Under the pieces are notes generated by a model that saw only the letters and a program-made list of their open reading frames with translations, made no database searches and had not been told where the DNA came from. Positions 271 to 21,887 of a stretch of DNA of 64,000 nt are shown piece after piece. The translations under genes were made by a program, and so were the position numbers. The stretch lies in IMG/VR virus record IMGVR_UViG_3300021400_000095; one strand, given 5' to 3'. Position 1 is the first letter of the stretch, and each line of letters begins with the position of its first letter. The DNA comes from a virus (Duplodnaviria; Caudoviricetes).

Positions 271-327
271 TTAGTTTGGTATGGTTTTGGCATATAGTTA
301 TATTGTTGATTTTAAAATAAAAGAATT

Positions 328-606
328 ATGTTGCAGAATAAAACTTTTAGTTTTAAGAAAGTAATCAATCCTATAGAAAAGGAGATTGATTGGGAAAAGG
401 ATTTTGGTTGTCATGGTTTAAACCTTTCCACAATGCAGTTTGAAAGAGTGTCAATGGTTGGTGCTCCAAAGTCAATAATACATATAAATCTGTATGCTGA
501 TATTGCTGATTATTCAGAGGATGTTGCTGAAATGGCCAAGGCAGATAGTGCTACATTTTTGCTTTATAAAGATTATTATGTTGTTGGTTATGTTGTTGAA
601 TCTTAA
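328..606 (+). CDS. hypothetical protein
   Basis: ORF track; upstream TGG motif and A-rich leader. Confidence 0.75.
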   Translation: MLQNKTFSFKKVINPIEKEIDWEKDFGCHGLNLSTMQFERVSMVGAPKSIIHINLYADIADYSEDVAEMAKADSATFLLYKDYYVVGYVVES

Positions 607-668
607 TTAAGGTTTTGGCATAATTCTTGGATATATTGTAAGTGTTAAACAAATTAAATTAATATAAT

Positions 669-887
669 ATGAAAACCATTGAAGGGGGCATTGAGAAGGT
701 ATTTGTTATGATTAATTCTACAAATTATAACAATGATGGCAAGTTTTGTGTTCATATTGGCAATCTTGCTGAAATGGCTGAATTGGGAATGAATACCTCA
801 GAAGATGTCAATGAATTGAATAATCTTGATGTTGATGGAGTTGCTTTGACAGATTATAAAGGTTGTTATGTAATTAGAATTGCATAA
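669..887 (+). CDS. hypothetical protein
   Basis: ORF track; TGGCAT motif at 616. Confidence 0.75.
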   Translation: MKTIEGGIEKVFVMINSTNYNNDGKFCVHIGNLAEMAELGMNTSEDVNELNNLDVDGVALTDYKGCYVIRIA

Positions 888-892
888 AAAAA

Positions 893-975
893 GGATAGAG
901 GTGTTGGCCACACCCACCCGGAACCATTTGAGGGTAGAAGATAATGGGCCCGCAACAAGGTAGGTTGTTGCAATA
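893..975 (+). ncRNA. candidate small structured RNA
   Basis: GC-rich intergenic island with hairpins GGTGT/ACACC and GCAACAA/TTGTTGC and two rare CpGs. Confidence 0.35.
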
Positions 976-1065
976 GAAATGTATTATTTTTTAATATATT
1001 TCTATTTTTTTTTATTTTGGCATTATTATTGTATATAATATAATTGTAATTAAATATATTATTAT

Positions 1066-1344
1066 ATGAATAAGATTGATATTCTGAACAAGATTAAGGA
1101 TTTTCTCAGTAGCAATATTGGGGATATGTATTATTCTTTTGCATATAAGTCTTTTGTTTTTCATTATGATAGTTCAAAATATGATTTAATGTCAATTTAT
1201 ATCAATGAGGATAATGTGGTTGAGATTGAATGTGTTGGCTATTCTGCATTTAAGTTGAATTATCTTAAAGCAAAGGATATGTCTTATAAGACCTTGAATC
1301 TTATTTATAATAATTTGGTTGCTGATTTTAAAACTTATAATTAG
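1066..1344 (+). CDS. hypothetical protein
   Basis: ORF track; upstream motif. Confidence 0.75.
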   Translation: MNKIDILNKIKDFLSSNIGDMYYSFAYKSFVFHYDSSKYDLMSIYINEDNVVEIECVGYSAFKLNYLKAKDMSYKTLNLIYNNLVADFKTYN

Positions 1345-1347
1345 AAT

Positions 1348-1590
1348 ATGAATATTGAAGAATTGAAATCCCTTGCATTAAGGATGCTATTTGAGGAACA
1401 TCTTTGGAAGGTTGGTGAAAAGACAAGTTTTGAATTTTCCCTTAAAGAATATCAGATTGGCAAGGTGGAGAATGGCTTTACATTAAGCACCTATAATAAG
1501 ATAGATAAAACTTGGAACAAGCCTAAAGAGTTTGCAAGTCTTGGAAGATTGTTTAGTTATTTATTTAATTGCAATTTCATATCATATTAA
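1348..1590 (+). CDS. hypothetical protein
   Basis: ORF track; operonic. Confidence 0.7.
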   Translation: MNIEELKSLALRMLFEEHLWKVGEKTSFEFSLKEYQIGKVENGFTLSTYNKIDKTWNKPKEFASLGRLFSYLFNCNFISY

Positions 1591-1647
1591 GTTATGGTAT
1601 GGATTTTGCATTTAGTGTAGGTGAGTATTAACATTTAAGATTTTGGT

Positions 1648-2058
1648 ATGATGAATGTTTTTAATTATGCAGCAGTCTGTGAGAAGAATTGGGAATTGAA
1701 TCTTGGTGATATGACAGATTGGAAACCCAAATATACATTTTATAGTGATTTTTCCATTGCAGAATATTGTGAGATTTACAAGAGGGATGCAAAGGCAGTA
1801 GAAGATACATATAATAGAGTTATTGAATCTTGGGGGGATTGCATTGATGCAATGACTGAGGTTTCAATGGTATTGAATCATAAGATTTGGGCATTTTATA
1901 ATAGAGTAGATAGTGGTTATCTTGGTTGCAGTGATACAATAGCAGATTATTTTGAAGGCATTTATTATAAACTTTGGGAGAAATGTACTGCTTTCATTAA
2001 AAAGAAATTTGCTGATGATAAGGATGCAATGTCTTATTATTATTCAGTAATTGATTAA
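1648..2058 (+). CDS. hypothetical protein
   Basis: ORF track; upstream motif. Confidence 0.8.
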   Translation: MMNVFNYAAVCEKNWELNLGDMTDWKPKYTFYSDFSIAEYCEIYKRDAKAVEDTYNRVIESWGDCIDAMTEVSMVLNHKIWAFYNRVDSGYLGCSDTIADYFEGIYYKLWEKCTAFIKKKFADDKDAMSYYYSVID

Positions 2059-2123
2059 GTTCAATTACTTTTGGCATTATTCTTGATTATACAATAAACA
2101 GATAACTATCAAAAAATAGAATT

Positions 2124-2399
2124 ATGAACAAGGTTTACATTGTTACTTGGGAGAATGTGCATAATTATAACACTGAGGCATATAGTGGTCTTAACATCTA
2201 TGGTGTTTTTGCCACAAAGGAGGATGCAGCAAAAGCAAAAGATAATCTGATTAATCAGATGATTGAAGATGCAAAAAAGGATGGTATTAAATATAAGATG
2301 GTATCCAATAATGATATTTATGCTGATGTAGAGATTGATGAAGAAGAATATCATTTCTATGTCACTGATTATGAAGTTGGAAAAGTTTATGTAGATTAA
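2124..2399 (+). CDS. hypothetical protein
   Basis: ORF track; upstream motif. Confidence 0.8.
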   Translation: MNKVYIVTWENVHNYNTEAYSGLNIYGVFATKEDAAKAKDNLINQMIEDAKKDGIKYKMVSNNDIYADVEIDEEEYHFYVTDYEVGKVYVD

Positions 2400-2450
2400 A
2401 CTTTTGGTATATTTATTGCATATTATAATAATGTATTAAATATAATAATT

Positions 2451-2705
2451 ATGGCAAAGGTAAGAGGAATTACAAAGCAGATGCTGACTGATGTAAAGGC
2501 TGATATTAGAAAATATGAAGTCCTTTGCAAGCAGGGAGAACAACATAATGTTGCTGAAAAGTTGATGCAGGAGAATCCAAATATTCTTTATTGTAATTAT
2601 TGGAATGATAAGGATTTGGAATGGGGTGGTCAATTGACTTATTCTATTACAAGGGAAGATTGTGAATATCATAAAAAAATGATAAGCCAAAATGATGATG
2701 AATAA
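2451..2705 (+). CDS. hypothetical protein
   Basis: ORF track; upstream motif. Confidence 0.75.
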   Translation: MAKVRGITKQMLTDVKADIRKYEVLCKQGEQHNVAEKLMQENPNILYCNYWNDKDLEWGGQLTYSITREDCEYHKKMISQNDDE

Positions 2706-2760
2706 TCTTTGGCATTATTCTTGTTAATACATTATATAGATAACTTTAATATTATTTGAA

Positions 2761-3270
2761 ATGAATAAGAATATTAAGACCCTTGAACTTGGTACTATTA
2801 ACATTGAGAGTGGTAAGGTTTATGCTACTGACCCTTGTTATCCCACAGATATTTGGTGTCAGAAACTTGTAAATGTCAAAGCAGGAAAATATATTTGTAG
2901 GGCAGTTATCAGTGATGAGGGAGATTGGGGAAAGAGGATTTCTGAAATTTCTATCAGTCACACTGATAATCCAAAGAATCTTGGGAAATATATTCTTTCA
3001 GATAATATTGGTGTTGATAGTGGTCAGTGTGGTTTCTTTGAAAAGGAATATTATGAGGAATTCCACAATGGGCATTTCATTGTTGAAAATGATAAAGATA
3101 AAGAATGGTATGACAAGGTATGTAATATAACCTTGAATGGGGAGTTTTGTGGTTGTGTGGATGATAAGGGTGTTGTAAGTGAAAGTGGTTATGGTGATGG
3201 TTGTTATACCCTTTATGCAGGATATAATTCAAAAGATGAAATTGTTGCATTGAGAGTTAGATTTATTTAA
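2761..3270 (+). CDS. DUF4241-like protein
   Basis: Motifs TDPCY, IGVDSGQCGFF, SGYGDGCY. Confidence 0.65.
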   Translation: MNKNIKTLELGTINIESGKVYATDPCYPTDIWCQKLVNVKAGKYICRAVISDEGDWGKRISEISISHTDNPKNLGKYILSDNIGVDSGQCGFFEKEYYEEFHNGHFIVENDKDKEWYDKVCNITLNGEFCGCVDDKGVVSESGYGDGCYTLYAGYNSKDEIVALRVRFI

Positions 3271-3379
3271 CTTATTGTTATAATTTTTTCTATAAAATAA
3301 GGGTATTGCAAAATATCCTTGTTTTTTATATTATTGTGGTATGGTTATTGCATATAGGTATAATGTAATAAAATGTAAT

Positions 3380-3556
3380 ATGAGAGAGATAACAAAAGAG
3401 CAATGGTTAAGGATGCTTGCATTAAATTGTGATAAAGGCAAACATAGAATAAGAATGAACAGATATGGTGTATCTTGGTGTATTATTTGTGGAAGATTAA
3501 GTTCTACAAATAATGTTGATGATTTGAAAGAGAATGAAAGTCTTTCAATCAAATAG
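3380..3556 (+). CDS. small Cys/His-containing hypothetical protein
   Basis: In-frame ATG at 3380 after the promoter motif; C..H and CxxC residues. Confidence 0.6.
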   Translation: MREITKEQWLRMLALNCDKGKHRIRMNRYGVSWCIICGRLSSTNNVDDLKENESLSIK

Positions 3557-3612
3557 ATTTTTTGGCATTATAATTGATAGTAATATAGGTGTAATTATAA
3601 AATTAATAGAAT

Positions 3613-3858
3613 ATGGACAAGCAAGAAATCAGAAATTTCCTCAACAAGAATTATAAGAGTTGGAAAAATGCATTTGTCATTTATGAATTAACTGACAATA
3701 AAATCAATATTATTGATTATGGTATGCATAAGGCAAGTATGTCAATGATTGCCAAGAAACTTATTAAAACCTATAATTTTGAAATGGTTGTTTTTACTAT
3801 TGGCAGTCCTACTGGAAATGTTTGGTTTTTTACCAAGCATAGTCTTGGTTTGGTATAG
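3613..3858 (+). CDS. hypothetical protein
   Basis: ORF track; upstream motif. Confidence 0.75.
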   Translation: MDKQEIRNFLNKNYKSWKNAFVIYELTDNKINIIDYGMHKASMSMIAKKLIKTYNFEMVVFTIGSPTGNVWFFTKHSLGLV

Positions 3859-3892
3859 TTTTTGTTATATAATCTAATAAAAATATAGTATT

Positions 3893-4303
3893 ATGATTAC
3901 CAAATTTGTTTTTTCTTGTCTTGTGCTTCTTCTTGTTCTTTTCTTGATTTATGCAGTGATTGGTACAATTATAGAAAACAAGGAAATTAAAAAACTTTAT
4001 TCTTGTCATCTTTGGGATATGTTCATTGATAATTCCAAGAAGTTCAAGTTTAAGTATGTATATTATTATAAATCCAACAAACAATATATCTATCATTGGG
4101 AATATGGAAATTATGATATTGTTGTTTGGGTTGATGATACTGAAACTCCAATTCCAACTTGTTCAATTCATACTATGAAATCAGATTGTGTACTTTCAAA
4201 TTTCAATAAAGCAAAGAGTAATGAACTTGCTATGATTCTGCTAAATAGTATTGGTTGGAATAATAATAATGAATATTTCTGTAAATATTATCATTTGGCA
4301 TAA
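3893..4303 (+). CDS. hypothetical membrane-anchored protein
   Basis: N-terminal hydrophobic helix. Confidence 0.75.
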   Translation: MITKFVFSCLVLLLVLFLIYAVIGTIIENKEIKKLYSCHLWDMFIDNSKKFKFKYVYYYKSNKQYIYHWEYGNYDIVVWVDDTETPIPTCSIHTMKSDCVLSNFNKAKSNELAMILLNSIGWNNNNEYFCKYYHLA

Positions 4304-4346
4304 TTATTGATTGTATTGTAAGTGTAATAAATAAAAAAGAAGAATT

Positions 4347-4763
4347 ATGAATAATGCTATTAGTTATGATGCTCTCTGTGTTGAATTCCATAATTTGTGG
4401 GAGAAAGCACATAGTACACTGAACAATATGCTTAATAACAGAGGTGTTGAAACAATCAATGTTATGGCATATATTGATGCTGATATGCTTGACATTTGTC
4501 CATCATTTTCACAGACTGACAAAAATGGTTATGGTGTCAATGTAACTCTCAAACTCATTCATAAGGACAAGAATGGTGATTGGGTTGTTGATGTGGTGGA
4601 TGAAGATTATGATGATTGGGACACACTCAATTTTGACCAATGGAATTTTGATGCAGGAGCATTGATTGATGTTATTGGTGTTGTTGAGGAAATTTTTGAG
4701 ATTGCTGATGACCAATATAATGGAAAGGTGCTTGGTGTTGGTGAAAATTTTGAAGAAGAATAG
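4347..4763 (+). CDS. acidic hypothetical protein
   Basis: ORF track; D/E-rich. Confidence 0.8.
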   Translation: MNNAISYDALCVEFHNLWEKAHSTLNNMLNNRGVETINVMAYIDADMLDICPSFSQTDKNGYGVNVTLKLIHKDKNGDWVVDVVDEDYDDWDTLNFDQWNFDAGALIDVIGVVEEIFEIADDQYNGKVLGVGENFEEE

Positions 4764-4809
4764 AGATTGGCAAGATTATTGCATATATGTATAGTGTATA
4801 ATAAAGGAT

Positions 4810-4959
4810 ATGGATAATCTTAAGAAATGTTGTCTTGCTTGTAAGAACAATCAATTCTGTAAAAATACAGAGAGGAAAGGTCAAGTAACAACCTTTGTTT
4901 GTGAAAATTTTAAGTGGCATAGTTCATATAAATCTTTCAATTCAAAGAAGAAAGAATAA
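4810..4959 (+). CDS. small Cys-rich hypothetical protein (49 aa)
   Basis: Read manually: MDNLKKCCLACKNNQFC...KKKE*; own TGGCAAG-N4-TTGC motif. Confidence 0.6.
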   Translation: MDNLKKCCLACKNNQFCKNTERKGQVTTFVCENFKWHSSYKSFNSKKKE

Positions 4960-5009
4960 AGTTTGGCACAAATATTGTTCTATATTGTAAGTGTAAAAAA
5001 TAAACAAGT

Positions 5010-5309
5010 ATGCAAGTCAAATTCAAATACAATCAGTTTATTGTCAAAAAGGCAAGGGAAGTTGGTAGTTTGATTAACAAAGTAAGTTATGGTGTTTTCA
5101 AAGTAACTCCCTATGTTAAATATGATGTTGAGGGAACACCTATGGAATTTGATATTACATACAAAGTACATCTTATTCCAGTGGGGAAAAATGCAGAGAA
5201 ATTTTGTGAAGATGATTATTATACATCTGATTTGTGGGATGTCCCCAAAGAAATGATTTTTGATGATGAAAATCTTGCACAAAAATTAGTTGATAAAATT
5301 TCCATATAA
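5010..5309 (+). CDS. hypothetical protein
   Basis: ORF track; upstream TGGCAC motif. Confidence 0.75.
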   Translation: MQVKFKYNQFIVKKAREVGSLINKVSYGVFKVTPYVKYDVEGTPMEFDITYKVHLIPVGKNAEKFCEDDYYTSDLWDVPKEMIFDDENLAQKLVDKISI

Positions 5310-5338
5310 ATAAACTTTGGCATAAAATGTGCAATATA

Positions 5339-5686
5339 ATTAGAGGTCAGCCTTAAAACTTTGGCATGGATATTGATTGTTAAAATGTGTAAATAAATTA
5401 GTTGAAACATTTTTATGAGAATTAAAGATAAGACTTAAAGTTTGGCACAATTTTAGATAGTATTTAGGTGTTGATGTTAAATTTAATTTGAAACCTATTA
5501 GTATGATTAGAGATAAGCCTTAAAATTAGATTTATTATTATTGAACTTTGATATTAGTGTAAATTTAATTTGGGATTTTTTAAGTATGAATAGGATTAGA
5601 GATAAGACTTAAAGTTTGGCACAATTTTAGATAGTATTTAGTAAAACAAGTAAAACCCAATTAAAATGATTAGAGGTCAGCCTTAA
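5339..5686 (+). repeat. five ~18-nt direct repeats ATTARAGRTMAGMCTTAA interleaved with sigma54-like motifs
   Basis: Copies at 5339, 5421, 5506, 5595 and 5669; 42-nt exact duplication 5426-5467 = 5600-5641. Confidence 0.85.
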
Positions 5687-5759
5687 TAAAGTTTTAAGAT
5701 AGATATTAGTTAAAATAACACAATCCTAAAATCCCAATAAATTTAGCAACATAATAGGA

Positions 5760-6310
5760 TAAACAATAACCAAAGGTTACAAAAGTTGCAAAGTTTCCCA
5801 AAGGGAAACACAAAAACCAATAAGGGCAAAAATTGAAATAGTGTGCTTTTCCAATGAAGCATATGCAGAGGTAAAGATAAAGGTGGGTCGCAACCACAAT
5901 GGCATAACTTGAAGGAGTGGAGGAATAGCACAACTATTTTAATGAAAATCAAAAAACCTTATAATGCTAAAAGGGTGGTCTCCTTAAGCAGAATGGTTAA
6001 TGACTTGGAAACATTAAATTATATTATTTATTTTATTTAATTTGATGGCTTAAACCCTCATTTTGAGGTCAAGTTGGCAACTGACTTGTAGGTGGATAGT
6101 TGTAATTGACATTTTGGCAAAGGTAAGTAACCATAATCCATGTGGACAGATGTATGCAGATACACAATAAATCCTATGGGTAACATCATAGCAGGAATTA
6201 GGGTCTATATGTTATTGATTATTCTTGTAATTCCAAGTAAATAATCTTTCATAGTGTGGTTTGATTTGAAATGGAGAATCAGTAAAGCAAATAATCTTTG
6301 TCAATTTGTT
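5760..6310 (+). ncRNA. candidate large structured ncRNA (~550 nt; ROOL/GOLLD-like size class, unassigned)
   Basis: No credible ORF; many hairpins and long-range helices (5908-5917/5980-5988, 5931-5939/6094-6102, 6104-6111/6299-6306). Confidence 0.55.
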
Positions 6311-6340
6311 AATTTTTATTTTAGAAATTTATTAACAATG

Positions 6341-6356
6341 GTACTCATTTGAGTAC
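6341..6356. repeat. palindrome GTACTC-N4-GAGTAC (one of six copies; others at 14419, 17006, 19579, 22522, 22766)
   Basis: Recurs intergenically; loop ATTT here, TTTT in the other five. Confidence 0.85.
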
Positions 6357-6375
6357 CTTATTAAATAAGTAAAAG

Positions 6376-6711
6376 ATGGTTACAAGTTTTTTTGATGCAG
6401 TGTATCAAATCACAGAAGCTGTATATGGCACAATTTCTTATCTTACTTGTGTATTGAACAATATAGAAGGTAAGACTATTGACCTATCATATAATAGAGA
6501 TAATGTATATGGATATATCTTGATTGATGATAAGATTGTTGAAAAACAACTTCATAAGGTTTGTGTTGATGAAAATAATAATGTTAAAATTAAATTCATT
6601 GATAGTGATGAATATTATTATCTTAACACTTCCATTGATATTGAATTTATACAGACAACATTTAATATTGCACAATCTCTAAAAGATTATCCTATTGATG
6701 ATGTAATATAA
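6376..6711 (+). CDS. hypothetical protein
   Basis: ORF track. Confidence 0.75.
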   Translation: MVTSFFDAVYQITEAVYGTISYLTCVLNNIEGKTIDLSYNRDNVYGYILIDDKIVEKQLHKVCVDENNNVKIKFIDSDEYYYLNTSIDIEFIQTTFNIAQSLKDYPIDDVI

Positions 6712-6766
6712 AAAGTTTGGCATCATTTCTGCATATCATATAATTGAACATTAAAAAAAAAGAATT

Positions 6767-7066
6767 ATGAATTACATTGAGGAAAAGAAGTATCTGATTA
6801 ACAAGGCCATTAATTTTATGAATGGTAGGGATAGTGTTTATCTTGAAGATATAATTGGCAATACTGACTATATTACACTTGACTATTTTGGCAACAAGAT
6901 TGAGTGTGAGGCAGTGGGTCTTGAAATGTTTGATAATTCACCAAATGAGGTTTTTCTGAGAACTTATAGTGAAGAATACCCTGATGGTGCTGAAACTGAC
7001 AACCTTAAGTATTTCTCCAATGATGAAATAAAGAAAATTCTTGACCTTTTTGGTATTGAATATTAG
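6767..7066 (+). CDS. hypothetical protein
   Basis: ORF track; upstream motif. Confidence 0.8.
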   Translation: MNYIEEKKYLINKAINFMNGRDSVYLEDIIGNTDYITLDYFGNKIECEAVGLEMFDNSPNEVFLRTYSEEYPDGAETDNLKYFSNDEIKKILDLFGIEY

Positions 7067-7114
7067 TTTGGCATTATTTCTGCATATTGTATAATTGAAC
7101 ATTTAATAAAGAAT

Positions 7115-7438
7115 ATGGAAACAATTTATTTGAAAGAGAGAATTCCTGCTGAAAATGGTAGATATAAAACAACTCATTATGAGATTGTAGAACATAATGG
7201 TAAGAAATTCCTTATCTATGTTGAGGGCAGTAATGGAGATTGTCTTGGTTTCAATAATAAGTGTTGCCTTAGTGTTATGAATGAAAATGGCAGTTGGGAT
7301 AAGGTTGCTGATAACCACCAACTTGGTTTTTCATCCAATAATGATAATATGTATTATGGCACTAAAGTTGAAGTAAAGAAGAAGTATGTTGATATGAATG
7401 TCAATGAGTTTAAGGACTATATTTCTAAAGTATATTAA
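7115..7438 (+). CDS. hypothetical protein
   Basis: ORF track; upstream motif. Confidence 0.8.
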   Translation: METIYLKERIPAENGRYKTTHYEIVEHNGKKFLIYVEGSNGDCLGFNNKCCLSVMNENGSWDKVADNHQLGFSSNNDNMYYGTKVEVKKKYVDMNVNEFKDYISKVY

Positions 7439-7440
7439 TT

Positions 7441-7812
7441 ATGGAGAAAATGGCAAACTACAAGAATGTTCTTGTTAATGTAAACAAGACTATTGATGAA
7501 CTTTATGTTTCCCTTAGGGAATTCATTAAGGAACATGGTGGTTTTATCAACACAAGTGCTGATAAGTATCCTAAGTATCCCTGCAATATCAAGTCCATTG
7601 AGTATGTCAGTGGTGGTGAGGTTGCAGAGTGGAATGTTCTTGCAGTCAAGGTTGTAGGTGATAGAATTATGTATTGTGCTGACTATGATGCTTGTGAGGA
7701 AGTATCTGATGAAGATTTGGATGATTATGAGTGGTTTGACCTTTGTGGTGGTGGTCACTATTATGTTCAGACCTTGCTGAATATTTGTGAACTTATTGAA
7801 TTATATGTATAG
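7441..7812 (+). CDS. acidic hypothetical protein
   Basis: ORF track. Confidence 0.8.
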   Translation: MEKMANYKNVLVNVNKTIDELYVSLREFIKEHGGFINTSADKYPKYPCNIKSIEYVSGGEVAEWNVLAVKVVGDRIMYCADYDACEEVSDEDLDDYEWFDLCGGGHYYVQTLLNICELIELYV

Positions 7813-7868
7813 TTTGGTATAGTTTATGCATATATTAAAATGTTATTTTATAAAAAACAAGAAACATT

Positions 7869-8240
7869 ATGATTATGGTTACTGAATATTTTGCTAACAA
7901 GATTCTGAATGATGCTCAGAAAAGGATTAAGGGTTACATTGTTAATCTTGTAAAGAAACTTTACTTGGACAAGAATGAGTTTGCACCAAATTTTGATGAT
8001 GGTGAAAACTATTGTCTTGAATGTGAAGGTATAAGTTTCAGTATTGAAGTAGATAACTCATATCTTGATGTTTATGAAGTAACCTCTGAGGAAAGGCAAA
8101 TCAAAGAGATTGTTGTTGATGGCAGTGACAATCTATGGTTTGTAATGGAAGATGATGATGAATGTAATTGGGATGATGTAGATGTGCTGAATCTTGCAGG
8201 TGTTGCAAATATTTTGCAGAATCTTGCTTTTAAAAAGTAG
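7869..8240 (+). CDS. acidic hypothetical protein
   Basis: ORF track; upstream motif. Confidence 0.8.
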   Translation: MIMVTEYFANKILNDAQKRIKGYIVNLVKKLYLDKNEFAPNFDDGENYCLECEGISFSIEVDNSYLDVYEVTSEERQIKEIVVDGSDNLWFVMEDDDECNWDDVDVLNLAGVANILQNLAFKK

Positions 8241-8293
8241 AATGGTATAATTTTTGAATATAGTATAGAAGAACAATTTTAATTAATTTAATT

Positions 8294-8596
8294 ATGAAAG
8301 TTACACAACTTATTAACAACAATGGTAATCCTGCATCCAATCAGTTTGTTATTTATGACAATGATAATAACATTTATTTTCAGTCTTATGAAACTCTGAT
8401 TGCAAAGTATGATGTTAAGAGCAAGAAGTTGTTTGTTACCAAATCTTGGGATTATAGTAATACTACAAGAAAGCATTTCTATATTTTCCTAAATGATTTT
8501 ACCAAGTATGGTTATATCTATAATAAGGATAGTATGCTTAAGGCAATTAAGAATGGTGAAGTTGAAGTAGTTGATAGTAAATTTTTTAATTTTTAA
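8294..8596 (+). CDS. phage hypothetical protein (FQSY...WDYSxTTxKH)
   Basis: ORF track; motif resembles a recurrent phage family (recalled, not searched). Confidence 0.8.
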   Translation: MKVTQLINNNGNPASNQFVIYDNDNNIYFQSYETLIAKYDVKSKKLFVTKSWDYSNTTRKHFYIFLNDFTKYGYIYNKDSMLKAIKNGEVEVVDSKFFNF

Positions 8597-8600
8597 AAAA

Positions 8601-8813: not shown

Positions 8814-8861
8814 GATTTTGGCATTAAAATTGCTAATGTTATTGTAACAAATATTATCATT

Positions 8862-9059: not shown

Positions 9060-9061
9060 TT

Positions 9062-9295: not shown

Positions 9296-9330
9296 TTGAT
9301 TAATATCATATTGAATAATTAAAATAAAAT

Positions 9331-12749: not shown

Positions 12750-12810
12750 AAATTGAATTAGTATATAAAGAATAAATTAAGTTAAACAATAAAAAAAAAA
12801 ATTAAGAATT

Positions 12811-13275: not shown

Positions 13276-13334
13276 TCCCTTTTGGCACATTTCTTGCTCA
13301 TATCTATAATGTATAACTTATAAATTTATTTATT

Positions 13335-13607
13335 ATGAATAAGAATCAGTATATTTCTGAAATTAAGAAACTTGTTAAAAACAATGATAATAAGACCTAT
13401 TTCTTTTCCAATGGTCTTAATATTGTAACTTGGTATGATGGTATGCAGATTCCTACCAATATCCATAAGGTGTTTGTAAAGGGCAATGTCCTTTATATCA
13501 ATGTCACTGATGCATATCATACTGAAACTGACAATGTTGAAAAAATGTCAGATTGGGATGTGGATGATGTTGCCACAATTTATTCCCTTGTTTCCAATAA
13601 CAAGTAA
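13335..13607 (+). CDS. hypothetical protein
   Basis: ORF track; upstream motif. Confidence 0.75.
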   Translation: MNKNQYISEIKKLVKNNDNKTYFFSNGLNIVTWYDGMQIPTNIHKVFVKGNVLYINVTDAYHTETDNVEKMSDWDVDDVATIYSLVSNNK

Positions 13608-13666
13608 ACTTTGGCATGATTTCTGTTATATATTATATTGAATATTAATAAAAAAAATAATTGAAT

Positions 13667-14170
13667 ATGAGTACTTTTGTTGCTACCAATTTCATGAGGA
13701 CTTCTGACCTTAAGGCACTTGCATTTGTTATTAATGATTGGGAGGATTGGAGGTGTGCTCTCTCTGAGGAAGCTGTCTATAACCTTGACCATAATGATGA
13801 TTTGATGTATTTCATTGAAAAGTATGGTGCTACCAAAGCAGTTGAATATTATAATAAGAGTAGATTTTGGCTTGATGGCAATAATTTCAAGGAGCCTCAT
13901 CTTCTTAGTTTTGATAGGATGGTGGATATCATTAATGATGTCTATGATGTGGAGCATTTCAAGGAACTCATTGAAAATGGTTATGAGGAACTATATGACA
14001 AGTGGTTTTACATGGATAAGGTTAAAAATGCTATCAATCCAAAGAAAGCCTATTGTGTGACCACCATGTTTAAGTCCTCTGTTGATAGGGATGAAATCAA
14101 GAAGAAGGTTGAGAGTATTCTGAAAGAGAGTGGTGTCAGTAATTGGACCTTTGTTGTGGAGGAAGCATAA
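13667..14170 (+). CDS. hypothetical protein
   Basis: ORF track; first ATG at 13667. Confidence 0.8.
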   Translation: MSTFVATNFMRTSDLKALAFVINDWEDWRCALSEEAVYNLDHNDDLMYFIEKYGATKAVEYYNKSRFWLDGNNFKEPHLLSFDRMVDIINDVYDVEHFKELIENGYEELYDKWFYMDKVKNAINPKKAYCVTTMFKSSVDRDEIKKKVESILKESGVSNWTFVVEEA

Positions 14171-14171
14171 T

Positions 14172-14408
14172 ATGAAGGCAAAGGAGTTGTTGGATAGGCT
14201 TGGAACTCTGTACTATGATACAGAGTTGTCCATAGCAAAAATTCTGATGAAACACAAGAATATTACTGATACTGATGGTACTGAAATTTCTTTGGGTACA
14301 GATAATAATGGTGTAAGATGTGTTTTCTATGGTTATGACCCAATCAATGAACTTGATATTAATGATATGATTGGTGTTCTTGAATATCTTGAAAAAATTG
14401 ATGATTAA
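14172..14408 (+). CDS. hypothetical protein
   Basis: ATG immediately after the previous stop. Confidence 0.75.
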   Translation: MKAKELLDRLGTLYYDTELSIAKILMKHKNITDTDGTEISLGTDNNGVRCVFYGYDPINELDINDMIGVLEYLEKIDD

Positions 14409-14487
14409 TAGCATAAAGGTACTCTTTTGAGTACCTTTTGGCATACTTCTTGAATATATTAGTATTGAACATTTAATAAAAAGAATT

Positions 14488-15003
14488 ATGATTAAGCACA
14501 AAAAAAATTACTTCCTTGTTAATGCCATTGATATGGGGGAGAACATAAAGGAATATCTTGAATCTGCAAAATTCAATTATGTGATTGTTGAGGGTGGGCA
14601 AGTCCTTATGTGGGGAAATAAATTCCCAGTTATCTTTGGTTCAATGGAAGATGTCAATGCTGAATTGAACTATCTTAAGGATAGTAAAAATCAAATTATT
14701 GTAATGTCTGAATTTGATTTTATTATTAACCATTGTCTTTCTGCCATTGAGGATATCATTATTAACCAAATTAAAATTAAGGGTGAAAATGATGGAGTGT
14801 GTCATATCTTCTTTTTCAATGGTCTTAATAATGTCATTAATATTAATGGAATGACAGATATTCTTAATGGGTCTGTTGGTGCTGATGGTCTTTTATCTTT
14901 ACTCATTTCTGATGAAGATGATAACAAACAAGACTTTATTTCTTTGAGTGATATTAAGGATAGTGATGTAATTTTTAATATTCTTGTGCAGGTTTTGGCA
15001 TAG
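14488..15003 (+). CDS. hypothetical protein
   Basis: ORF track; palindrome plus promoter motif upstream. Confidence 0.8.
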   Translation: MIKHKKNYFLVNAIDMGENIKEYLESAKFNYVIVEGGQVLMWGNKFPVIFGSMEDVNAELNYLKDSKNQIIVMSEFDFIINHCLSAIEDIIINQIKIKGENDGVCHIFFFNGLNNVININGMTDILNGSVGADGLLSLLISDEDDNKQDFISLSDIKDSDVIFNILVQVLA

Positions 15004-15045
15004 TTATTGTTCATATCTATATTGTATAATTAAAATAAAAGTATT

Positions 15046-15312
15046 ATGGAAATTTATGTTCTTACAATTTCTGAAGTTTTTGACTTTGAAGATTTTTCTC
15101 ATAAGCCAAAGGCTTTTTATAAATTTGAAGATGCAGTTGCTGAAATGAATTCTATTAGCAACAATTTTGAAAAAGATACTGATATAGAAAGTGAAATTGA
15201 TGGTGATTCTTGGGTGATTGATAAGGGCAGTAGGTTTTATGATGCTTATATTGATGGCAGATATAATGAATACCATTTTACAATTAAAATTAATCAAGTG
15301 GAGGTAAAATAA
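15046..15312 (+). CDS. hypothetical protein
   Basis: ORF track; loosely resembles 2124, 15556 and 19866. Confidence 0.8.
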   Translation: MEIYVLTISEVFDFEDFSHKPKAFYKFEDAVAEMNSISNNFEKDTDIESEIDGDSWVIDKGSRFYDAYIDGRYNEYHFTIKINQVEVK

Positions 15313-15314
15313 TT

Positions 15315-15485
15315 ATGGCAAGACAGAATTCTATTAATGTGCTTGATGACCTTAATGAATATGCAACAAGATATGGTCTTGATGCTCTTGGTTATGCAAT
15401 TAGGGAAATGGCAAGAAACAATGAGATTCATTTCACACAAAAACAAATGTGTGACCTTTGGGAATATGGTGGGAATGTGGAATAA
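15315..15485 (+). CDS. hypothetical protein (56 aa)
   Basis: Read manually: MARQNSINVLDDLNEY...GGNVE*; operonic. Confidence 0.65.
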   Translation: MARQNSINVLDDLNEYATRYGLDALGYAIREMARNNEIHFTQKQMCDLWEYGGNVE

Positions 15486-15555
15486 TTTTCCAGATTTTCA
15501 TTTTTGGTATGATTCTTGCTCTTATTACAATAGATAATTAAAATAAAAAAGTATT

Positions 15556-15825
15556 ATGAAAAGGTTTTATATTCTTACTTTTGTTGACCTTGTTAAAATG
15601 GGTTATAATGTTTCTGATGTTTTCATGTTTGATAGTATTGAACTTGCTATTAAGAAAATGAAAGAAATGTATCTTCAATATTGTGAACAAGAAGATATTG
15701 ATGACCCTATGGCCACTGATTCTTATGACCATGAATTTAGTGAAAGTGGAGAATTTAATAATGGTTTTGCCTATATTAATGGAAAATATTATTGGGATAT
15801 TTTCAATAAAGACCTTGAATATTAA
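15556..15825 (+). CDS. hypothetical protein
   Basis: ORF track; upstream motif. Confidence 0.8.
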   Translation: MKRFYILTFVDLVKMGYNVSDVFMFDSIELAIKKMKEMYLQYCEQEDIDDPMATDSYDHEFSESGEFNNGFAYINGKYYWDIFNKDLEY

Positions 15826-15880
15826 TTTTCTGGCATAGTTATTGTTCATATCTATATTGTATAAATTAAAAAAAAGCATT

Positions 15881-16315
15881 ATGATTAATCTTAGAAGTTA
15901 TATGGAAGATGGTGCTAATTGGCAGGCACAGGCAGTCCTTGCTTATATGAAAGCAAATTATGAATGGGCAGTTGACCCTTCTTGGGATGATGAAAGGAAA
16001 GCCTATGATGCTGAAATCTTCCTTTATAGATATGAAAATTGTAGGGAAAATGGCTATATTTTTTCCCTCAGATTTGATGATGCACAACTGAATTTTGCAG
16101 TGTTTGAGGCTGCTAATTCTGATGATATTTTTGTCCTTATTAATAATGAGGTTTTCTTTGATACCCCAAGTTGGGAGGTTATGAGAAAAGTATATAAATC
16201 AAGATATGATTGTGATATTTCTTTCAAAGTTGGGCATATTGTTGAATGTGGTAACTATATTGTTAATGAAATGAGAGATTTCATTAAGAATATTATTTCA
16301 AAAGATTATTGCTAA
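15881..16315 (+). CDS. hypothetical protein
   Basis: ATG at 15881, in frame with the track ORF. Confidence 0.8.
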   Translation: MINLRSYMEDGANWQAQAVLAYMKANYEWAVDPSWDDERKAYDAEIFLYRYENCRENGYIFSLRFDDAQLNFAVFEAANSDDIFVLINNEVFFDTPSWEVMRKVYKSRYDCDISFKVGHIVECGNYIVNEMRDFIKNIISKDYC

Positions 16316-16377
16316 TATTCTTCTTTGGCATACTTTCTGCATATATCTATATTGTTAACAATTAAAAAAAAAGAATT

Positions 16378-16968
16378 ATGAATAATATTGTCAAAAACTA
16401 CATCATGCTTAATACCAATAATACTGACCTTGAATATTATCTTGATGATTTCAAGGAGTATTGTGAAGATAATGGTTATCAAATTGTAGGTGAAGGTACT
16501 GATATGGAAGGTCTCTACCTTGGTGGTAAAGTAACCTTTTGGGATTATTATAATAATTCTATTAATGATGAAATTGAAAATTTTTGGGATAATCTTAAGT
16601 GGCTTAAAAATTCCAAGTACAATTCCAAATGTGTTGTAACAGGGACCCTTGGTCTGTGGAGTGGTAACTATGATGTTCCACCTACCCTTTTCACTTCCAT
16701 CTATGATGCAATGAACAAATGTGCATCTAAGGCTGATGACCTTTATGTTTATGTCAATGATAATGTTATTGAAGTCAAGGCTTATCATCATGATGGAACC
16801 AACTCCTTTGAAATTAGACTTCTCAATGATGATGATTATGATTGTGTGATGTACTGGGAAGATGAAAATGATTGTGTGATGTACTGGGAAGATGAAAATG
16901 ATGGTGATGTAATGGATTATATCAAAGCAAATGCAATGGATATTTATTATGAAAATATTGGCCAGTAA
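16378..16968 (+). CDS. acidic hypothetical protein with a 10-aa tandem duplication
   Basis: ORF track; exact 30-nt duplication at 16838-16897. Confidence 0.8.
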   Translation: MNNIVKNYIMLNTNNTDLEYYLDDFKEYCEDNGYQIVGEGTDMEGLYLGGKVTFWDYYNNSINDEIENFWDNLKWLKNSKYNSKCVVTGTLGLWSGNYDVPPTLFTSIYDAMNKCASKADDLYVYVNDNVIEVKAYHHDGTNSFEIRLLNDDDYDCVMYWEDENDCVMYWEDENDGDVMDYIKANAMDIYYENIGQ

Positions 16969-17135
16969 TTATTAATAATTATCTTTGGTAAAAAATATCT
17001 AATAAGTACTCTTTTGAGTACTTTTTGGTACAATTATTGATTAAAATTAAAAAGGGTTGAGTAAAACCAATAATGATTCTCTGAGTAGACTAGCTTTGGC
17101 AACCCTTTTATTTAACAATTAAAAAATTAACAATT

Positions 17136-17615
17136 ATGGATAAGAAAACAATTATTATTTCTCTTCTTAAAGAAATTGATACTGATGTTCTTATTGGGAT
17201 TTGGAATACCTATTGTTCTGATGAGAATATGGATGATTATATATATGAAAATGATGATTATAATATCAATGAAATTTTCACTAAGCCAGATGAAGCACTG
17301 AGGGCTGCTTTCTATGGTGATTATAGATATAATCATGATTACTTTGTTCTCAATGGTTATGGTAATCTTGAATCCTTTGATGAATATGATGCAGACAATC
17401 ATATTGACTTTGATATCCTTGCTGACTATATCATGGATGTTGGTTGTGATGAACTCTCTGAAAATTATAGTGAAGAACTGCAAGATGAATTCCTTAATTA
17501 TATCAATGAAAAATTTGAAGATAGGGAATTTACTGAGGATAATATTCCTAGTGGCACTGATTTGATTACTGAGGATTGGGATGAAATCTTATCTGAAATA
17601 CTTGATGAAGATTAA
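17136..17615 (+). CDS. highly acidic protein (DNA-mimic candidate)
   Basis: Very D/E-rich; DYFVLNGYGNLES motif. Confidence 0.75.
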   Translation: MDKKTIIISLLKEIDTDVLIGIWNTYCSDENMDDYIYENDDYNINEIFTKPDEALRAAFYGDYRYNHDYFVLNGYGNLESFDEYDADNHIDFDILADYIMDVGCDELSENYSEELQDEFLNYINEKFEDREFTEDNIPSGTDLITEDWDEILSEILDED

Positions 17616-17673
17616 TTCTTTGGCATGATACTTGCCTATTTAATAATATATAAACAATTAAATAAAAAGAATT

Positions 17674-18054
17674 ATGGATAAGGAAACTGCTATCAGCATT
17701 CTCAATGACCTCAACACCAATATTGTCCCTATTGTTGATAAAATCTTCTTCAATAAACTTGGTGTTACCACCAAAATGAAAGCAATCTATTCTGTTAATA
17801 GAAGTGGTGAATATTATTTTACTCTTATTAATGAAGATAATTCTGATGTTAATAAGAAAATGAGAGGTAATAAAATCCTTAGATATCTTTTCAAATCTGC
17901 TGAACTTAAAGCACAAACCTGGTATTTTGATGAAGATAATTGTTATGACTTCTATGTCAATGTTTATTATGAGCATAATGATGGTGGTTCCAATGGTCAT
18001 GAACTCATGAGGTTTTATATCAATAAAACTACTAAGACCATTCATTATAAGTAA
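17674..18054 (+). CDS. hypothetical protein
   Basis: ORF track; upstream motif. Confidence 0.8.
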   Translation: MDKETAISILNDLNTNIVPIVDKIFFNKLGVTTKMKAIYSVNRSGEYYFTLINEDNSDVNKKMRGNKILRYLFKSAELKAQTWYFDEDNCYDFYVNVYYEHNDGGSNGHELMRFYINKTTKTIHYK

Positions 18055-18106
18055 TCTTTGGCATGATTTATGCAATATATCTAAATAGAAAATAAAAAAA
18101 GAATAT

Positions 18107-18406
18107 ATGCTTAAGTTTAAAACAATTCCAATTACTTCTGATACTACTGTTCACTGGTATCTTGATTATCATGTAAATGCCCTTAATCTTGATGACCTTA
18201 TTTATGAAACTACTTCTGAATTCTGTGGTGATGATAATATGATTATTGTCATTGATGAAAAACATGATAGTCCATATGAGTCTCAAATTGATGAATATTC
18301 TTATCATTATCTTCTGAAAGAATATAGAGACAATGGTTATAGAATTGATTATGCTCTGTATACTAAGGATTGTCATTATCTCTGTGGTTTTGTTTGCTGG
18401 AAATAA
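18107..18406 (+). CDS. hypothetical protein
   Basis: ORF track; upstream motif. Confidence 0.75.
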   Translation: MLKFKTIPITSDTTVHWYLDYHVNALNLDDLIYETTSEFCGDDNMIIVIDEKHDSPYESQIDEYSYHYLLKEYRDNGYRIDYALYTKDCHYLCGFVCWK

Positions 18407-18412
18407 ATTATT

Positions 18413-19063
18413 ATGAATAAGTCTCTTGAAATTGTTTTCTTCCCTGGTTTCTATGGGTCCATTTTTGACCCTGTAGACAATGAATATAATAGCCTTAAAT
18501 ATGAGATTGAATATTATAAGGATACTTATAATAAAGAATTCAACATGGATGATTTCATCTTTGAAGAAGATGCTTGGAAGAATAAAATCTGTAATCTCTT
18601 TACTGAAGGATTTTCTGACATGTATAAGCCTCATTTCATTAAATCAATTGTTTTTGATGAAATGACTTCTCCAAGGTTCTATAATTTTGATAATGATAGA
18701 ATCTATGCCTTCTTTGAATTCACTGATGATTGGAAAGACCATATTAAAAACTTTATGGACTCCAATTATAAGGAACTGAAAGATATCATTAAAGAAGAAC
18801 ATTCCAGTAGAAGTGGTTATATATCCTTTATGTCCAATGATATTGATGAATGGTATAAAAAGTTTTTTGAAACCACTGATGAAGATGATATTGAAACCAC
18901 CTATCTTGAAGAAATCATTAAGTACTATGTGCTTTGGGATAATGGTTATGCTTTCAATGAAGGTTATAAAATTAGAGAAGAACTTGAATCATATGTTTTT
19001 GAAAATATGAATGAATCTGAATTCATTCATCTTAAGGAACAATTTATGTGTGAACTTGCTTAG
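18413..19063 (+). CDS. acidic hypothetical protein
   Basis: ORF track; motifs FPGFY, SPRFYNF, SRSGYISF. Confidence 0.8.
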   Translation: MNKSLEIVFFPGFYGSIFDPVDNEYNSLKYEIEYYKDTYNKEFNMDDFIFEEDAWKNKICNLFTEGFSDMYKPHFIKSIVFDEMTSPRFYNFDNDRIYAFFEFTDDWKDHIKNFMDSNYKELKDIIKEEHSSRSGYISFMSNDIDEWYKKFFETTDEDDIETTYLEEIIKYYVLWDNGYAFNEGYKIREELESYVFENMNESEFIHLKEQFMCELA

Positions 19064-19575: not shown

Positions 19576-19635
19576 TAAGTACTCTTTTGAGTACCTTTTG
19601 GCATGATTATTGTATATTTATATTAAGATTAAGAT

Positions 19636-19711
19636 TCTCCTGTAGCTCAGTTGGTTAGTAAGCATCTGACTCATAATCAGAGGGTCGTAGGTTCAAGTCC
19701 TACCGGGAGAA
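19636..19711 (+). tRNA. tRNA with CAU anticodon (Ile2 or Met)
   Basis: Acceptor TCTCCTG/CGGGAGA, anticodon arm TCTGA-CTCATAA-TCAGA, T arm GTAGG-TTCAAGT-CCTAC; CCA not encoded. Confidence 0.9.
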
Positions 19712-19721
19712 CAATTAAAAT

Positions 19722-19801
19722 AGGGGTGTACCTCAGCTGGCTTATACCCAGACATTAAATGAGTAACTTGGTGTATGCAGGTTCAAATCCTGTCACCCCC
19801 A
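19722..19801 (+). ncRNA. D-armless tRNA-like RNA with UAU anticodon and long variable arm
   Basis: GGGGTG/CACCCC acceptor, CTGG-CTTATAC-CCAG anticodon arm, ACATTAA/TTGGTGT arm, GCAGG-TTCAAAT-CCTGT T arm. Confidence 0.7.
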
Positions 19802-19865
19802 CTAATAATGGCATGATTTTTGTATATTATTAAAAAAGAAAATTTGTTGATTTAAAATTTTATTT

Positions 19866-20189
19866 ATGTACATTTATACTCTTATATTCTTTTCAAGTCT
19901 TGATGGGCAATTTACAATTAAAAATTATAAAACCCTCACATCAGCAAAAGAATATCTTGATAAATGTGTTGAAGGACAAAAGAAACTTGAAGGTGATACC
20001 TTTATTTCAGAAAATGCCTATGGCACTATGTTAGATAAAGATTATGAAGCACCAAGACTCCCTGATACACTTAGAAACCATTGGCTATTGCATGAATATG
20101 ATGTTATCTATGGTGTTGATACTGTAACTAACTTTAGAAATAATTTGTCCACATTCTCTAGATTTATTGTTAAATCTGAACTTAAATAA
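19866..20189 (+). CDS. hypothetical protein
   Basis: ORF track; upstream motif. Confidence 0.75.
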   Translation: MYIYTLIFFSSLDGQFTIKNYKTLTSAKEYLDKCVEGQKKLEGDTFISENAYGTMLDKDYEAPRLPDTLRNHWLLHEYDVIYGVDTVTNFRNNLSTFSRFIVKSELK

Positions 20190-20246
20190 AATAAAATTTT
20201 GAATTATTAATATTTATTTATATATTTACATTGTAAAAACTAATTA

Positions 20247-20355
20247 AGAAAACATACAGCAATCTTCAATATTAAAATTAAATTGATTTATTTGCTAAAT
20301 GGCTTTACCATTAAAGGTCTGATACTAACCCCAAAGTATTAAAAAATGTTTTCTG
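20247..20355 (+). ncRNA. 'ACAGCAA' stem RNA
   Basis: Closing helix AGAAAACAT-ACAGCAA...ATGTTTTCT-G with small internal hairpins; same motif upstream of the DUF2828 gene. Confidence 0.55.
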
Positions 20356-20379
20356 TTTATATAGTTCTTTGATAATATT

Positions 20380-20700
20380 GCCCCCGTGGTGGAACTGGTA
20401 AATGTTTGCCTACTACAATGTTAGTAAAACAACTCAAATTCGGTATCAGTTAGATAAGACTTTGTACGAATAAGCTGACTAAGAAAGCCTGAAGGTCCAT
20501 TTATATGGATAGCTGGGTAATACCGAGCCAAGCCTTAATAAAGGAAGGTGTAGAGACTTTAAGGGTTGCACTTTTAGTGAAGATAAAGTCCACTTAGTTG
20601 AAGTAATACTTTAGATGAAAATCTGTAACTAATTGAGACACAAAGGACTTAAAATCCTTTGGCCATTCTGGCCGTGCAGGTTCAAATCCTGTCGGGGGCA
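20380..20700 (+). tRNA. tRNA-Leu(UAA) split by a group I intron (exons 20380-20399 and 20636-20700)
   Basis: Spliced 85-nt cloverleaf GCCCCCG...CGGGGGCA with anticodon arm AAGGA-CTTAAAA-TCCTT and a long variable arm. Confidence 0.9.
20400..20635 (+). ncRNA. group I self-splicing intron (236 nt, no ORF) in the tRNA D-loop
   Basis: P/Q/R/S-like core (AAATTCGGT, AATACCGAGCCAAG, GAAGGTGTAGAGACT, GAAGATAAAGTCC); exon ends in U, intron ends in G; P1 GGT/GCC and P10 TGTTT/AGACA. Confidence 0.9.
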
Positions 20701-20709
20701 CTAAAAAAC

Positions 20710-20876
20710 CAAAGGTGAATAGTCATCTGTTTTCCCTTGTAGTGCAGTGCAACTCTGCTGAAAAGATGTAGTAATTAAAAGGGCCATAAGTATATCCAGA
20801 TAATGTGCTATTTTAAATGGTGTGGGTGTGATGGATTTATCTAAAAAGTGCACTTGATGATAAATCATAGCCTTTG
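20710..20876 (+). ncRNA. candidate structured RNA downstream of tRNA-Leu
   Basis: Closing helix CAAAGGT/GCCTTTG followed by a U-tract; internal hairpins; no ORF. Confidence 0.4.
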
Positions 20877-21090
20877 TTTTTTTTTAGTTAAAATGCTTAA
20901 AACGTCCACAATATTACTATTTCATGTGGGTTACAATAAAGAAATAGTTTTTTAAAGAAAATAAACTTTTCATAATTCTTTTTATTATTTTTCAATCCTA
21001 GTGATTGAATATCTTGAACTTCTCATGCTGTGATAGTCTGAGAAGTTTTTTTTTGTTTATACTATTTATCTCTATTATAAACTAATATAT

Positions 21091-21291
21091 ATGGAAACAT
21101 TTTTATTTATTGCAGGTGTTATATTTACTATAATTGCACTCTATATTAGAATTAAAAAATTATATATACCCTTTGATTATAATCTTATATATAATGTCCA
21201 AAATGCTAAATCTAATCTTGATATCATGAGAAAATTCCAAATATTTGGACCTATTCTTATTATATTATCTATCATACTTATTCTATCTTAA
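21091..21291 (+). CDS. small two-TM membrane protein
   Basis: Two hydrophobic helices; ACTATTTAT motif upstream. Confidence 0.65.
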   Translation: METFLFIAGVIFTIIALYIRIKKLYIPFDYNLIYNVQNAKSNLDIMRKFQIFGPILIILSIILILS

Positions 21292-21887
21292 TTATCTAAT
21301 ATTTTATAGATATTTGTTAATTATCTAATATTTCTTCAATATTAGATATTTTTTTTTTGGCATGATTCTTGCCCATATTATTTTTGATATTATATTTGAC
21401 CAAATCAATGGTTCTAAGCAGAGAGCATTTTTTTAAAAATTAACCCTGGAGTATATTCTCCAACCTACCTATATATCTATTTCCTAGGAAAATTTTACTT
21501 ATTTATATATATTTTTTGCTTATTTTTGGATTTTTGGTCAAAATCAAAATATTTATCATTGATTAATGAAATCAGTGATAAATATTCTACATCACTAAAA
21601 TCCATTCCAGATAAATTAAATTCTTTAATAATATAGGCTGGTAAAACAGCCTGTAGGGTATAATTTTTGCATATATGACTACTGTCATCAGATAATAATA
21701 TATATAATATGAATAATATACTCTTCATGAATCAAATTTTATCACCCATGGTCCCTGTTTTATTTTTAGACTCTATAGTACTATAATATATATTATTTAT
21801 TTAAACATGCATATGGACAAAAATATTGTATACTATCTTTAATTAATTTTTATTGTTTTTTTATTTTATTTTTTATATATTTGATAT

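Follow-up and report, generated by a model that had tools for sequence, protein, structure and literature searches.

This analysis concerns a 64-kilobase (kb) stretch of DNA, here called the window, from a tailed virus of the Caudoviricetes (IMG/VR record IMGVR_UViG_3300021400_000095), in which a block of small genes is headed, almost gene by gene, by sites resembling the -24/-12 promoters of sigma54 (RpoN). Phage early genes are expected to rely on the housekeeping sigma factor or on a phage polymerase, and sigma54 promoters stay closed until they are opened by an enhancer-bound ATPase. It is highly probable that the phage sites are read by the sigma54 of the host, whether this is activated by a host protein or with the help of a phage protein. 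More specifically, we favour with good confidence the reading that host sigma54 transcribes the early block by way of a host activator and without a dedicated enhancer. Behind this stands a wider proposal, to which we give about an even chance: that a jumbo-phage lineage moved its whole early programme from the housekeeping sigma factor to host sigma54, with dozens of promoters opened without an enhancer, either by a constitutive host activator acting off the DNA or by a novel type of phage protein able to bypass or hijack the AAA+ activator.

Sigma54-type sites and the genes behind them

The motif was scored as TGG(C/T)A(C/T)-N5-TTG, with 30 order-3 Markov simulations as the null. There are 46 exact matches in the window, against 5.2 expected and a simulation maximum of 10. 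The spacing is rigid, since spacers of 2–4 or 6–9 give just 2–10 matches each. A weight matrix finds 57 sites in the window, as against 2 once the sequence is reversed. The sites follow the consensus TTTGGCAT-(A/G)A-TT-n-TTG. The -24 element, TGGCA(C/T), has GG in all 57 sites, C at -23 in 44 and A at -22 in 56. In the -12 element the TTG is conserved, but the next base is C in 18 sites, A in 18, T in 19 and G in 2, and the C of the classical TTGC is not conserved.

The sites are also strikingly oriented. The original prediction placed about 40 of them ahead of small transcription units between 276 and 21373; the matrix finds 45 there on the + strand, and none on the - strand. The copies it quoted as best, at 11521 and 13281, both have the exact GG-N10-GC spacing, and all ten of its - strand sites are present. 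In 43 of the 57 cases the site lies 40–110 nucleotides (nt), mostly 40–57, 5' of an ATG on the same strand. Several of the remaining sites are accounted for, with one before the tRNA-Met at 19636 and four amid minigenes at 5.3–5.7 kb. No housekeeping promoter able to replace the sigma54-type sites was found in the early block. The sites and the genes that they precede are as follows, where T denotes the T of TGG and ORF an open reading frame.

274–18074, + strand: 42 sigma54-type sites from motif scans, about one per small gene.
Sites 1–14 of this array (+), T at 277, 616, 1018, 1595, 2072, 2405, 2710, 3337, 3563, 3851, 4296, 4768, 4964, 5318.
Sites 15–28 (+), T at 5362, 5443, 5617, 6718, 7069, 7357 (intragenic, and may be a chance match), 7815, 8243, 8819, 9285, 10241, 10557, 10799, 11055.
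Sites 29–42 (+), T at 11522, 11906, 12397, 12742, 13283, 13612, 14439, 14996, 15505, 15831, 16326, 17026, 17621, 18059.
328–19063, + strand: small-gene block, mostly of 50–220 amino acids (aa), nearly all without a family; DUF4241 at 2761–3270.
5318–5686, + strand: four sigma54-type sites amid minigenes of 6–9 codons.
5415–5438, 5503–5523, 5586–5612 and 5666–5686, + strand: the minigenes; a fifth frame, 5327–5356, overlaps a site.
11519–11537, + strand: site with full GG-N10-GC spacing, 42 nt 5' of the ATG at 11564.
13280–13298, + strand: site with full GG-N10-GC spacing, 52 nt 5' of the ATG at 13335.
14419–14455, + strand: terminator-like hairpin abutting the next sigma54-type site.
19596–19712, + strand: site (T at 19599) 37 nt 5' of tRNA-Met(CAT), 19636–19712, with a predicted leader of 11 nt.
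19806–19824, + strand: site 57 nt 5' of the ORF at 19866.
21355–21373, + strand: high-scoring site with no obvious gene directly downstream.
25150–25168, - strand (T at 25165): site before ORF 24783–25106.
27602–27620, - strand (T at 27617): site before ORF 27243–27566.
43224–43242, - strand (T at 43239): site before ORF 42823–43197.
43750–43768, - strand (T at 43765): site before ORF 43294–43689; the orthologue in relative G004 (described below) has a housekeeping promoter.
47686–47704, - strand (T at 47701): site before ORF 47347–47655.
55703–55759, - strand: tandem sigma54-type (T at 55756) and housekeeping -33/-7 (55735) promoters before ORF 55421–55684.
57489–57569, - strand: tandem sigma54-type (T at 57566) and housekeeping (57521) promoters before a DUF2828/DUF7788 RNA-binding-like gene, 55817–57430.
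60491–60509, - strand (T at 60506): site before ORF 59922–60458.
61600–61618, - strand (T at 61615): site before ORF 61173–61568.
62327–62345, - strand (T at 62342): site before ORF 62050–62298.

Relatives and the exchange of promoters

The window exonuclease matches IMG/VR contigs of up to 412 kb, with 58–78% identity. Four near-complete relatives were analysed, namely G001 (363 kb), G004 (393 kb), G003 (317 kb) and the first 400 kb of G002 (412 kb). The window is part of a clade of 320–410 kb jumbo phages that most likely infect Bacteroidota, a host suggested by promoter and translation signals. Its genes have no Shine-Dalgarno sequence and carry A at -3 in 62% of cases (compare PMC6847099). 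The clade uses the Bacteroidota TTTG/TAnnTTTG (-33/-7) housekeeping promoter, and the best cultured matches of the helicase are Bacteroides phages. In an unrooted tree of three genes the window falls with G001 and next with G004, and G002 and G003 lie apart.

The small-gene block at 328–19063 is syntenic with 316–335 kb of G001 and 5–24 kb of G004. G001, the closest relative, has 55 sites against 11 in the control, with 28 of them within 300–340 kb, the region containing the syntenic block. The partial relatives G110, G006 and G111 have 16, 14 and 8 sites respectively, against 1 in each control. At promoter positions the motif is nearly absent from G002 and G003, which carry housekeeping-type promoters in its place (86 and 52, respectively). 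G004 falls between these extremes: its sigma54-type promoters number 16–17, yet gene after gene in its early block follows a canonical -33/-7 promoter. Eight block genes have both a sigma54-type site in the window and an orthologue in G004, where the promoter is of housekeeping type in five, of sigma54 type in one and of neither type in two. For example, the G004 orthologue of the gene starting at 11564 is 56% identical and has a -33/-7 promoter in place of the sigma54-type site. The minigene array is swapped likewise, with a housekeeping promoter in G004.

Of the evidence that the motif is a promoter, this swap is the strongest, because in a relative the same slot is filled by a known one. 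It also suggests that the block is expressed early, since the housekeeping promoters of the G004 orthologues are available at once. The tree fits a spread of sigma54-type promoters within one lineage, with the direction unproven on an unrooted tree. In five Bacteroidota-type phages, the cultured DAC22, crAss001, FpV4 and MA9V-3 and an uncultured phage of 484 kb, there was neither an excess of the motif nor an array. No additional relatives turned up in a search with the early gene at 1648, and no cultured phage of the clade was identified.

Some of the sites head genes of more recognisable kinds. At 90–108 kb in G001, an EcoRI-type methylase, a GmrSD/HNH protein and a DUF932 gene are headed by sigma54-type sites, and the promoter class thus extends past the small-gene block. 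The DUF2828/DUF7788 protein at 55817–57430 (-), a PHROG 'RNA-binding protein', is 82% identical in G001, and an RNA-ligase-like gene of G001 also lies behind a sigma54-type site. The placement of the latter recalls the RNA-repair operon of Salmonella, which is sigma54-driven. The cassette of hairpin followed by sigma54-type site is repeated at 17006 and 19579, and in G001.

The relatives also help to place the start of transcription, which is predicted to lie about 12 nt after the -12 element. In the -24/-12 register GG is at -25/-24, which puts +1 26 nt after the first T of the motif (T+26). Predicted leaders then have a median of 24 nt, with none shorter than 10 nt. The housekeeping promoters of the same block in G004 have a leader of 22 nt, and the modal 5' untranslated region of B. 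thetaiotaomicron is 23 nt (PMC7366714). The alternatives, in which TGGCAT or TTG is read as a -35 box, were both rejected, as 9/45 or 37/45 leaders respectively become shorter than 10 nt. The tRNA genes set a limit of a different kind. Relative to the T of the site their 5' ends are at T+37 for the tRNA-Met of the window and T+29 for the tRNA-Trp at the head of the tRNA cluster of G001. If the site drives it, this tRNA-Trp would cap the start site and leave room for the -24/-12 register alone, which fits +1 at T+26.

The factor that reads the sites and its activation

Profile searches of the four near-complete relatives for RpoN (PF04552, TIGR02395 and a Bacteroidota RpoN profile) gave nothing significant, and neither an enhancer-binding activator nor an RNA polymerase beta subunit was found in them. 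Their matches to PF00158 (Sigma54_activat) are ClpB-type and other AAA+ proteins that lack the GAFTGA loop, and their six-frame products contain no AAA+ protein with this loop and no RpoN-box motif. The earlier inference of a sigma54-driven gene class thus survives as regards -24/-12 promoters heading such a class, most likely read by host RpoN, but not as regards a sigma54 or activator of the phage's own, of which these searches found no homologue.

The presumed hosts are well provided for. RpoN and activators are present in 61/61 sampled Bacteroidota, and the RpoN proteins are probably activator-dependent, because they retain region I and the RpoN box. In Bacteroidales, TGG(C/T)A-N8-G lies 72–93 nt 5' of groES in 24/24 scorable genomes. 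When a matrix was built from these host groES promoters and contained no phage sequence, it scored 51 sites in the window and 4 in the reversed control; of the 46 sites on the + strand, it recovered 36. The groES matches have C at -12 in just 11/26. The relaxed -12 C is thus a host trait and gives no evidence of a variant phage factor, which had been the earlier suggestion. In Flavobacterium psychrophilum this promoter class, there called SM4 and serving a chaperone and envelope-stress regulon, has had its start sites mapped at groES, dnaK, grpE, clpB and lon, and one has been confirmed by mutagenesis (Guerin et al. 2021, PMC9723704); sigma54 regulons have also been predicted for Bacteroidota (PMC12316311). 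In the phylum sample, most rpoN genes are not themselves preceded by the motif, and papers on B. thetaiotaomicron transcription start sites make no mention of sigma54.

At least one activator is present in 31/31 Bacteroidales genomes. A conserved activator of 400–425 aa, examined in 14 genomes, has Walker A at residue 39–48, and thus has no sensor domain, together with a GAFTGA/GSFTGA loop and a Fis-type helix-turn-helix (HTH). Its gene clusters with lptE, secG and groES in several genomes (L272:1033–4400 and other loci among L268–L281), and in three Bacteroidales genomes it is the sole activator found. It is therefore a candidate for the heat-shock activator of Bacteroidales. The groES promoters have TGACA/TGTCA boxes at -35 to -116 in 17/24 cases, with two or more in 11/24, as against 34/264 and 0/264 in control tiles. 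Upstream of the phage sites the boxes are at background (8/57, with two or more in 2/57; Fisher p = 1e-6 against the host). There is also little space for them: 31/40 early sites lie no more than 13 nt from the stop of the preceding reading frame, although a few of these frames may be spurious. Word and palindrome counts upstream of the sites revealed no shared phage enhancer; the single recurrent palindrome looks like a terminator hairpin and was rejected. There is no enrichment of sites for integration host factor (IHF) near the phage promoters, and no activator gene nearby. The phage promoters thus copy the host core and not the host enhancer.

We propose the following mechanism. Bacteroidota RNA polymerase carrying sigma54, the holoenzyme that serves chaperone and envelope-stress genes in Bacteroidota, would read the phage sites as promoters. 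The small early genes, the tRNA cluster and scattered non-structural genes would each be under a sigma54-type promoter, one per gene or short operon, giving leaders of about 23 nt, in the slots where relatives place a promoter for the housekeeping factor sigmaABfr. Apparently supplying neither sigma54 nor an AAA+ activator, the phage would borrow the activator of the host. The best candidate would be the sensor-less enhancer-binding protein encoded beside lptE-secG-groES in Bacteroidales, which might act from solution or by weak, non-specific binding to DNA. Activation without a dedicated enhancer is proposed because there are no TGACA boxes upstream and no intergenic room.

The same lack of boxes and of room would also be expected if host sigma54 reads the sites but a phage protein of unrecognised type, injected with the virion or first expressed from a housekeeping promoter, takes the place of the activator or recruits it, in the manner of MotA/AsiA at the middle promoters of T4. 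That would make the sigma54-type class a middle class under phage control. Most of the phage genes have no known family, and some housekeeping promoters are available to express such a factor first. We nevertheless consider this unlikely, given the six-frame and Sigma54_activat results above, and given that the G004 orthologues are on immediately available housekeeping promoters, which speaks for early timing. The missing boxes might alternatively indicate that the sites are not promoters but decoys or roadblocks that park sigma54 holoenzyme, titrating it from the heat-shock genes or coating the incoming DNA, with the genes read through from elsewhere. Without activation, sigma54 holoenzyme stays stably bound and can act as a repressor. 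Moreover, host chaperone genes depend on sigma54 (PMC9723704), and G001 carries its own DnaJ and ClpB. A decoy would have no need of orientation or of a set distance from the ATG, yet 45/45 block sites are on the sense strand and most are 40–57 nt from an ATG; the one-for-one replacement of housekeeping promoters and the position of some sites directly after a terminator-like hairpin also make this account quite improbable, although titration of sigma54 could be a side effect of the promoters. The least probable account, and a very unlikely one, is that a sigma70-type factor of the phage recognises the motif and that the likeness to sigma54 promoters is convergent. The relatives do encode 2–4 sigma70-family proteins each, but these include G002 and G003, which are without the motif. 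The phage sigma factors are accounted for by a separate motif, ACTATTTAT, which is found before larger genes and is common to all the relatives; this class is likely to be their target. The factor would also require the -35/-10 reading, which produces the very short leaders noted above and cuts into the tRNA-Trp of G001, and it would not explain why a matrix built only on host groES promoters recovers the sites.

Three considerations weigh against borrowing of host sigma54 and its activator. Classical sigma54 promoters need a DNA-bound activator and the phage sites are without host-type boxes, which leaves the activation step unexplained. A lineage-specific factor may be encoded outside the 64-kb window. 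Finally, the assignment of the host is drawn from promoter and translation signals and not from a spacer or from culture.

On balance we still prefer transcription by host sigma54, and it has several consequences. Some 55 enhancer-less promoters in a phage with no activator would imply that Bacteroidota sigma54 can work with no enhancer, or that there is an unknown bypass. The sigma54 route could let the phage shut down or outcompete housekeeping transcription while sustaining its own, and could tie lytic growth to the protein-stress state of the host. The paired orthologues, with sigma54-type promoters in the window and housekeeping ones in G004, provide a ready comparison. These promoters bear on how sigma54, little studied in gut and rumen Bacteroidota, is activated there, and would offer compact promoter parts for the phylum.

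Other features of the window and comparison with known systems

The second promoter class and the remaining features of the window can be summarised briefly.

25546–25555, + strand: example of the ACTATTTAT class, which lies before larger genes and is probably a late class; also at 22810, 23672, 28085, 32844 and 34223 (+) and at 41330 (-).
25591–26976, 28118–29776, 32879–34066 and 38183–40390, + strand: four repeat-rich paralogues (phrog_9915) that may be surface or tail proteins; the late-class motif lies upstream of three.
43294–46937, 53684–54895 and 58141–61568, - strand: at least 12 paralogous proteins of 120–200 aa, which match each other's orthologues in the four relatives.
5690–6370, + strand: an ORF-free stretch of about 650 nt downstream of the minigenes, ending at a terminator-like hairpin at 6341; a 68-nt stretch near 5854–5921 is 90% identical in G004. 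No Rfam family matches the region, which is a probable phage non-coding RNA.
19722–19801, + strand: tRNA-like element (29.2 bits; missed by ARAGORN) right after the tRNA-Met, with a UAU anticodon loop, a shrunken D arm and a long variable region.
20380–20703, + strand: tRNA-Leu(TAA) split in the D-loop by a 236-nt intron, 20400–20635, whose excision gives a complete tRNA of 86 nt.

The intron of the tRNA-Leu was not found in the four relatives. With U as the last base of the 5' exon and G as that of the intron, it is group I-like by inspection, with no match to group I in Rfam; to our knowledge its position in the D-loop is unusual. The minigenes encode peptides of 6–9 residues ending I-(R/K)-(D/G)-(K/Q)-(P/T), at 5327–5686 in the window, 322676–322780 in G001 and 21520–21629 in G004. 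They are kept in the three phages with synonymous codon changes, and are candidates for tRNA-sequestering or anti-host peptides.

The closest likeness to the phage sites is to the sigma54 core promoters of Bacteroidota and SM4 of F. psychrophilum, which have the same -24/-12 core in the same phylum, and the same relaxed -12 C at groES in Bacteroidales. The phage sites differ in being phage-borne, in their number (some 55 across 64 kb, with one for each small gene) and in lacking the TGACA boxes of host groES promoters. With the classical sigma54 promoters (glnAp2, pspA and nifH; TGGCAC-N5-TTGC) they share the GG-N10-G spacing, the -24 element and a T-rich flank, but C at -12 is found in only 18/57, and there is no upstream activator sequence, no IHF enrichment and no nearby activator gene. 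Because both the -12 C and the upstream activator site are wanting, they are not placed in the classical enhancer-dependent class, but would form an enhancer-less variant that behaves as a Bacteroidota sigma54 core promoter. Enhancer-independent activation of sigma54 is known for FlgR of Helicobacter, CtcC of Chlamydia and truncated DctD, activators without a DNA-binding domain. Their promoters share with those of the phage a -24/-12 core without an upstream site; the Bacteroidales candidate differs in that it keeps its Fis-type HTH, and instead lacks a sensor domain.

Among phages, a search of the full-text literature, covering few subscription papers, found just Pseudomonas phage YuA and, for a Pectobacterium phage protein, a weak HHpred annotation. 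The YuA promoter P015 (Ceyssens 2008) is sigma54-like, with its start mapped by ONT-cappable-seq (PMC10914365). It is a single such promoter among mostly sigma70-like and phage-specific ones, whereas here a whole early block is involved. The earlier statement that there is no phage precedent thus holds for a whole sigma54 gene class, none having been found, but not for an individual promoter. In general design the early block resembles T4/T5-type early programmes and those of G002, G003 and G004 on sigmaABfr, in which there are many short units, each with a promoter recognised by the host; the latter phages likewise have a separate, probably late class with phage sigma factors. What differs is that in the same gene slots a sigma54-type promoter replaces the housekeeping one. 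New here are this gene-by-gene swap, the limit that a tRNA places on the start-site register, and counts showing that the host enhancer box is absent.

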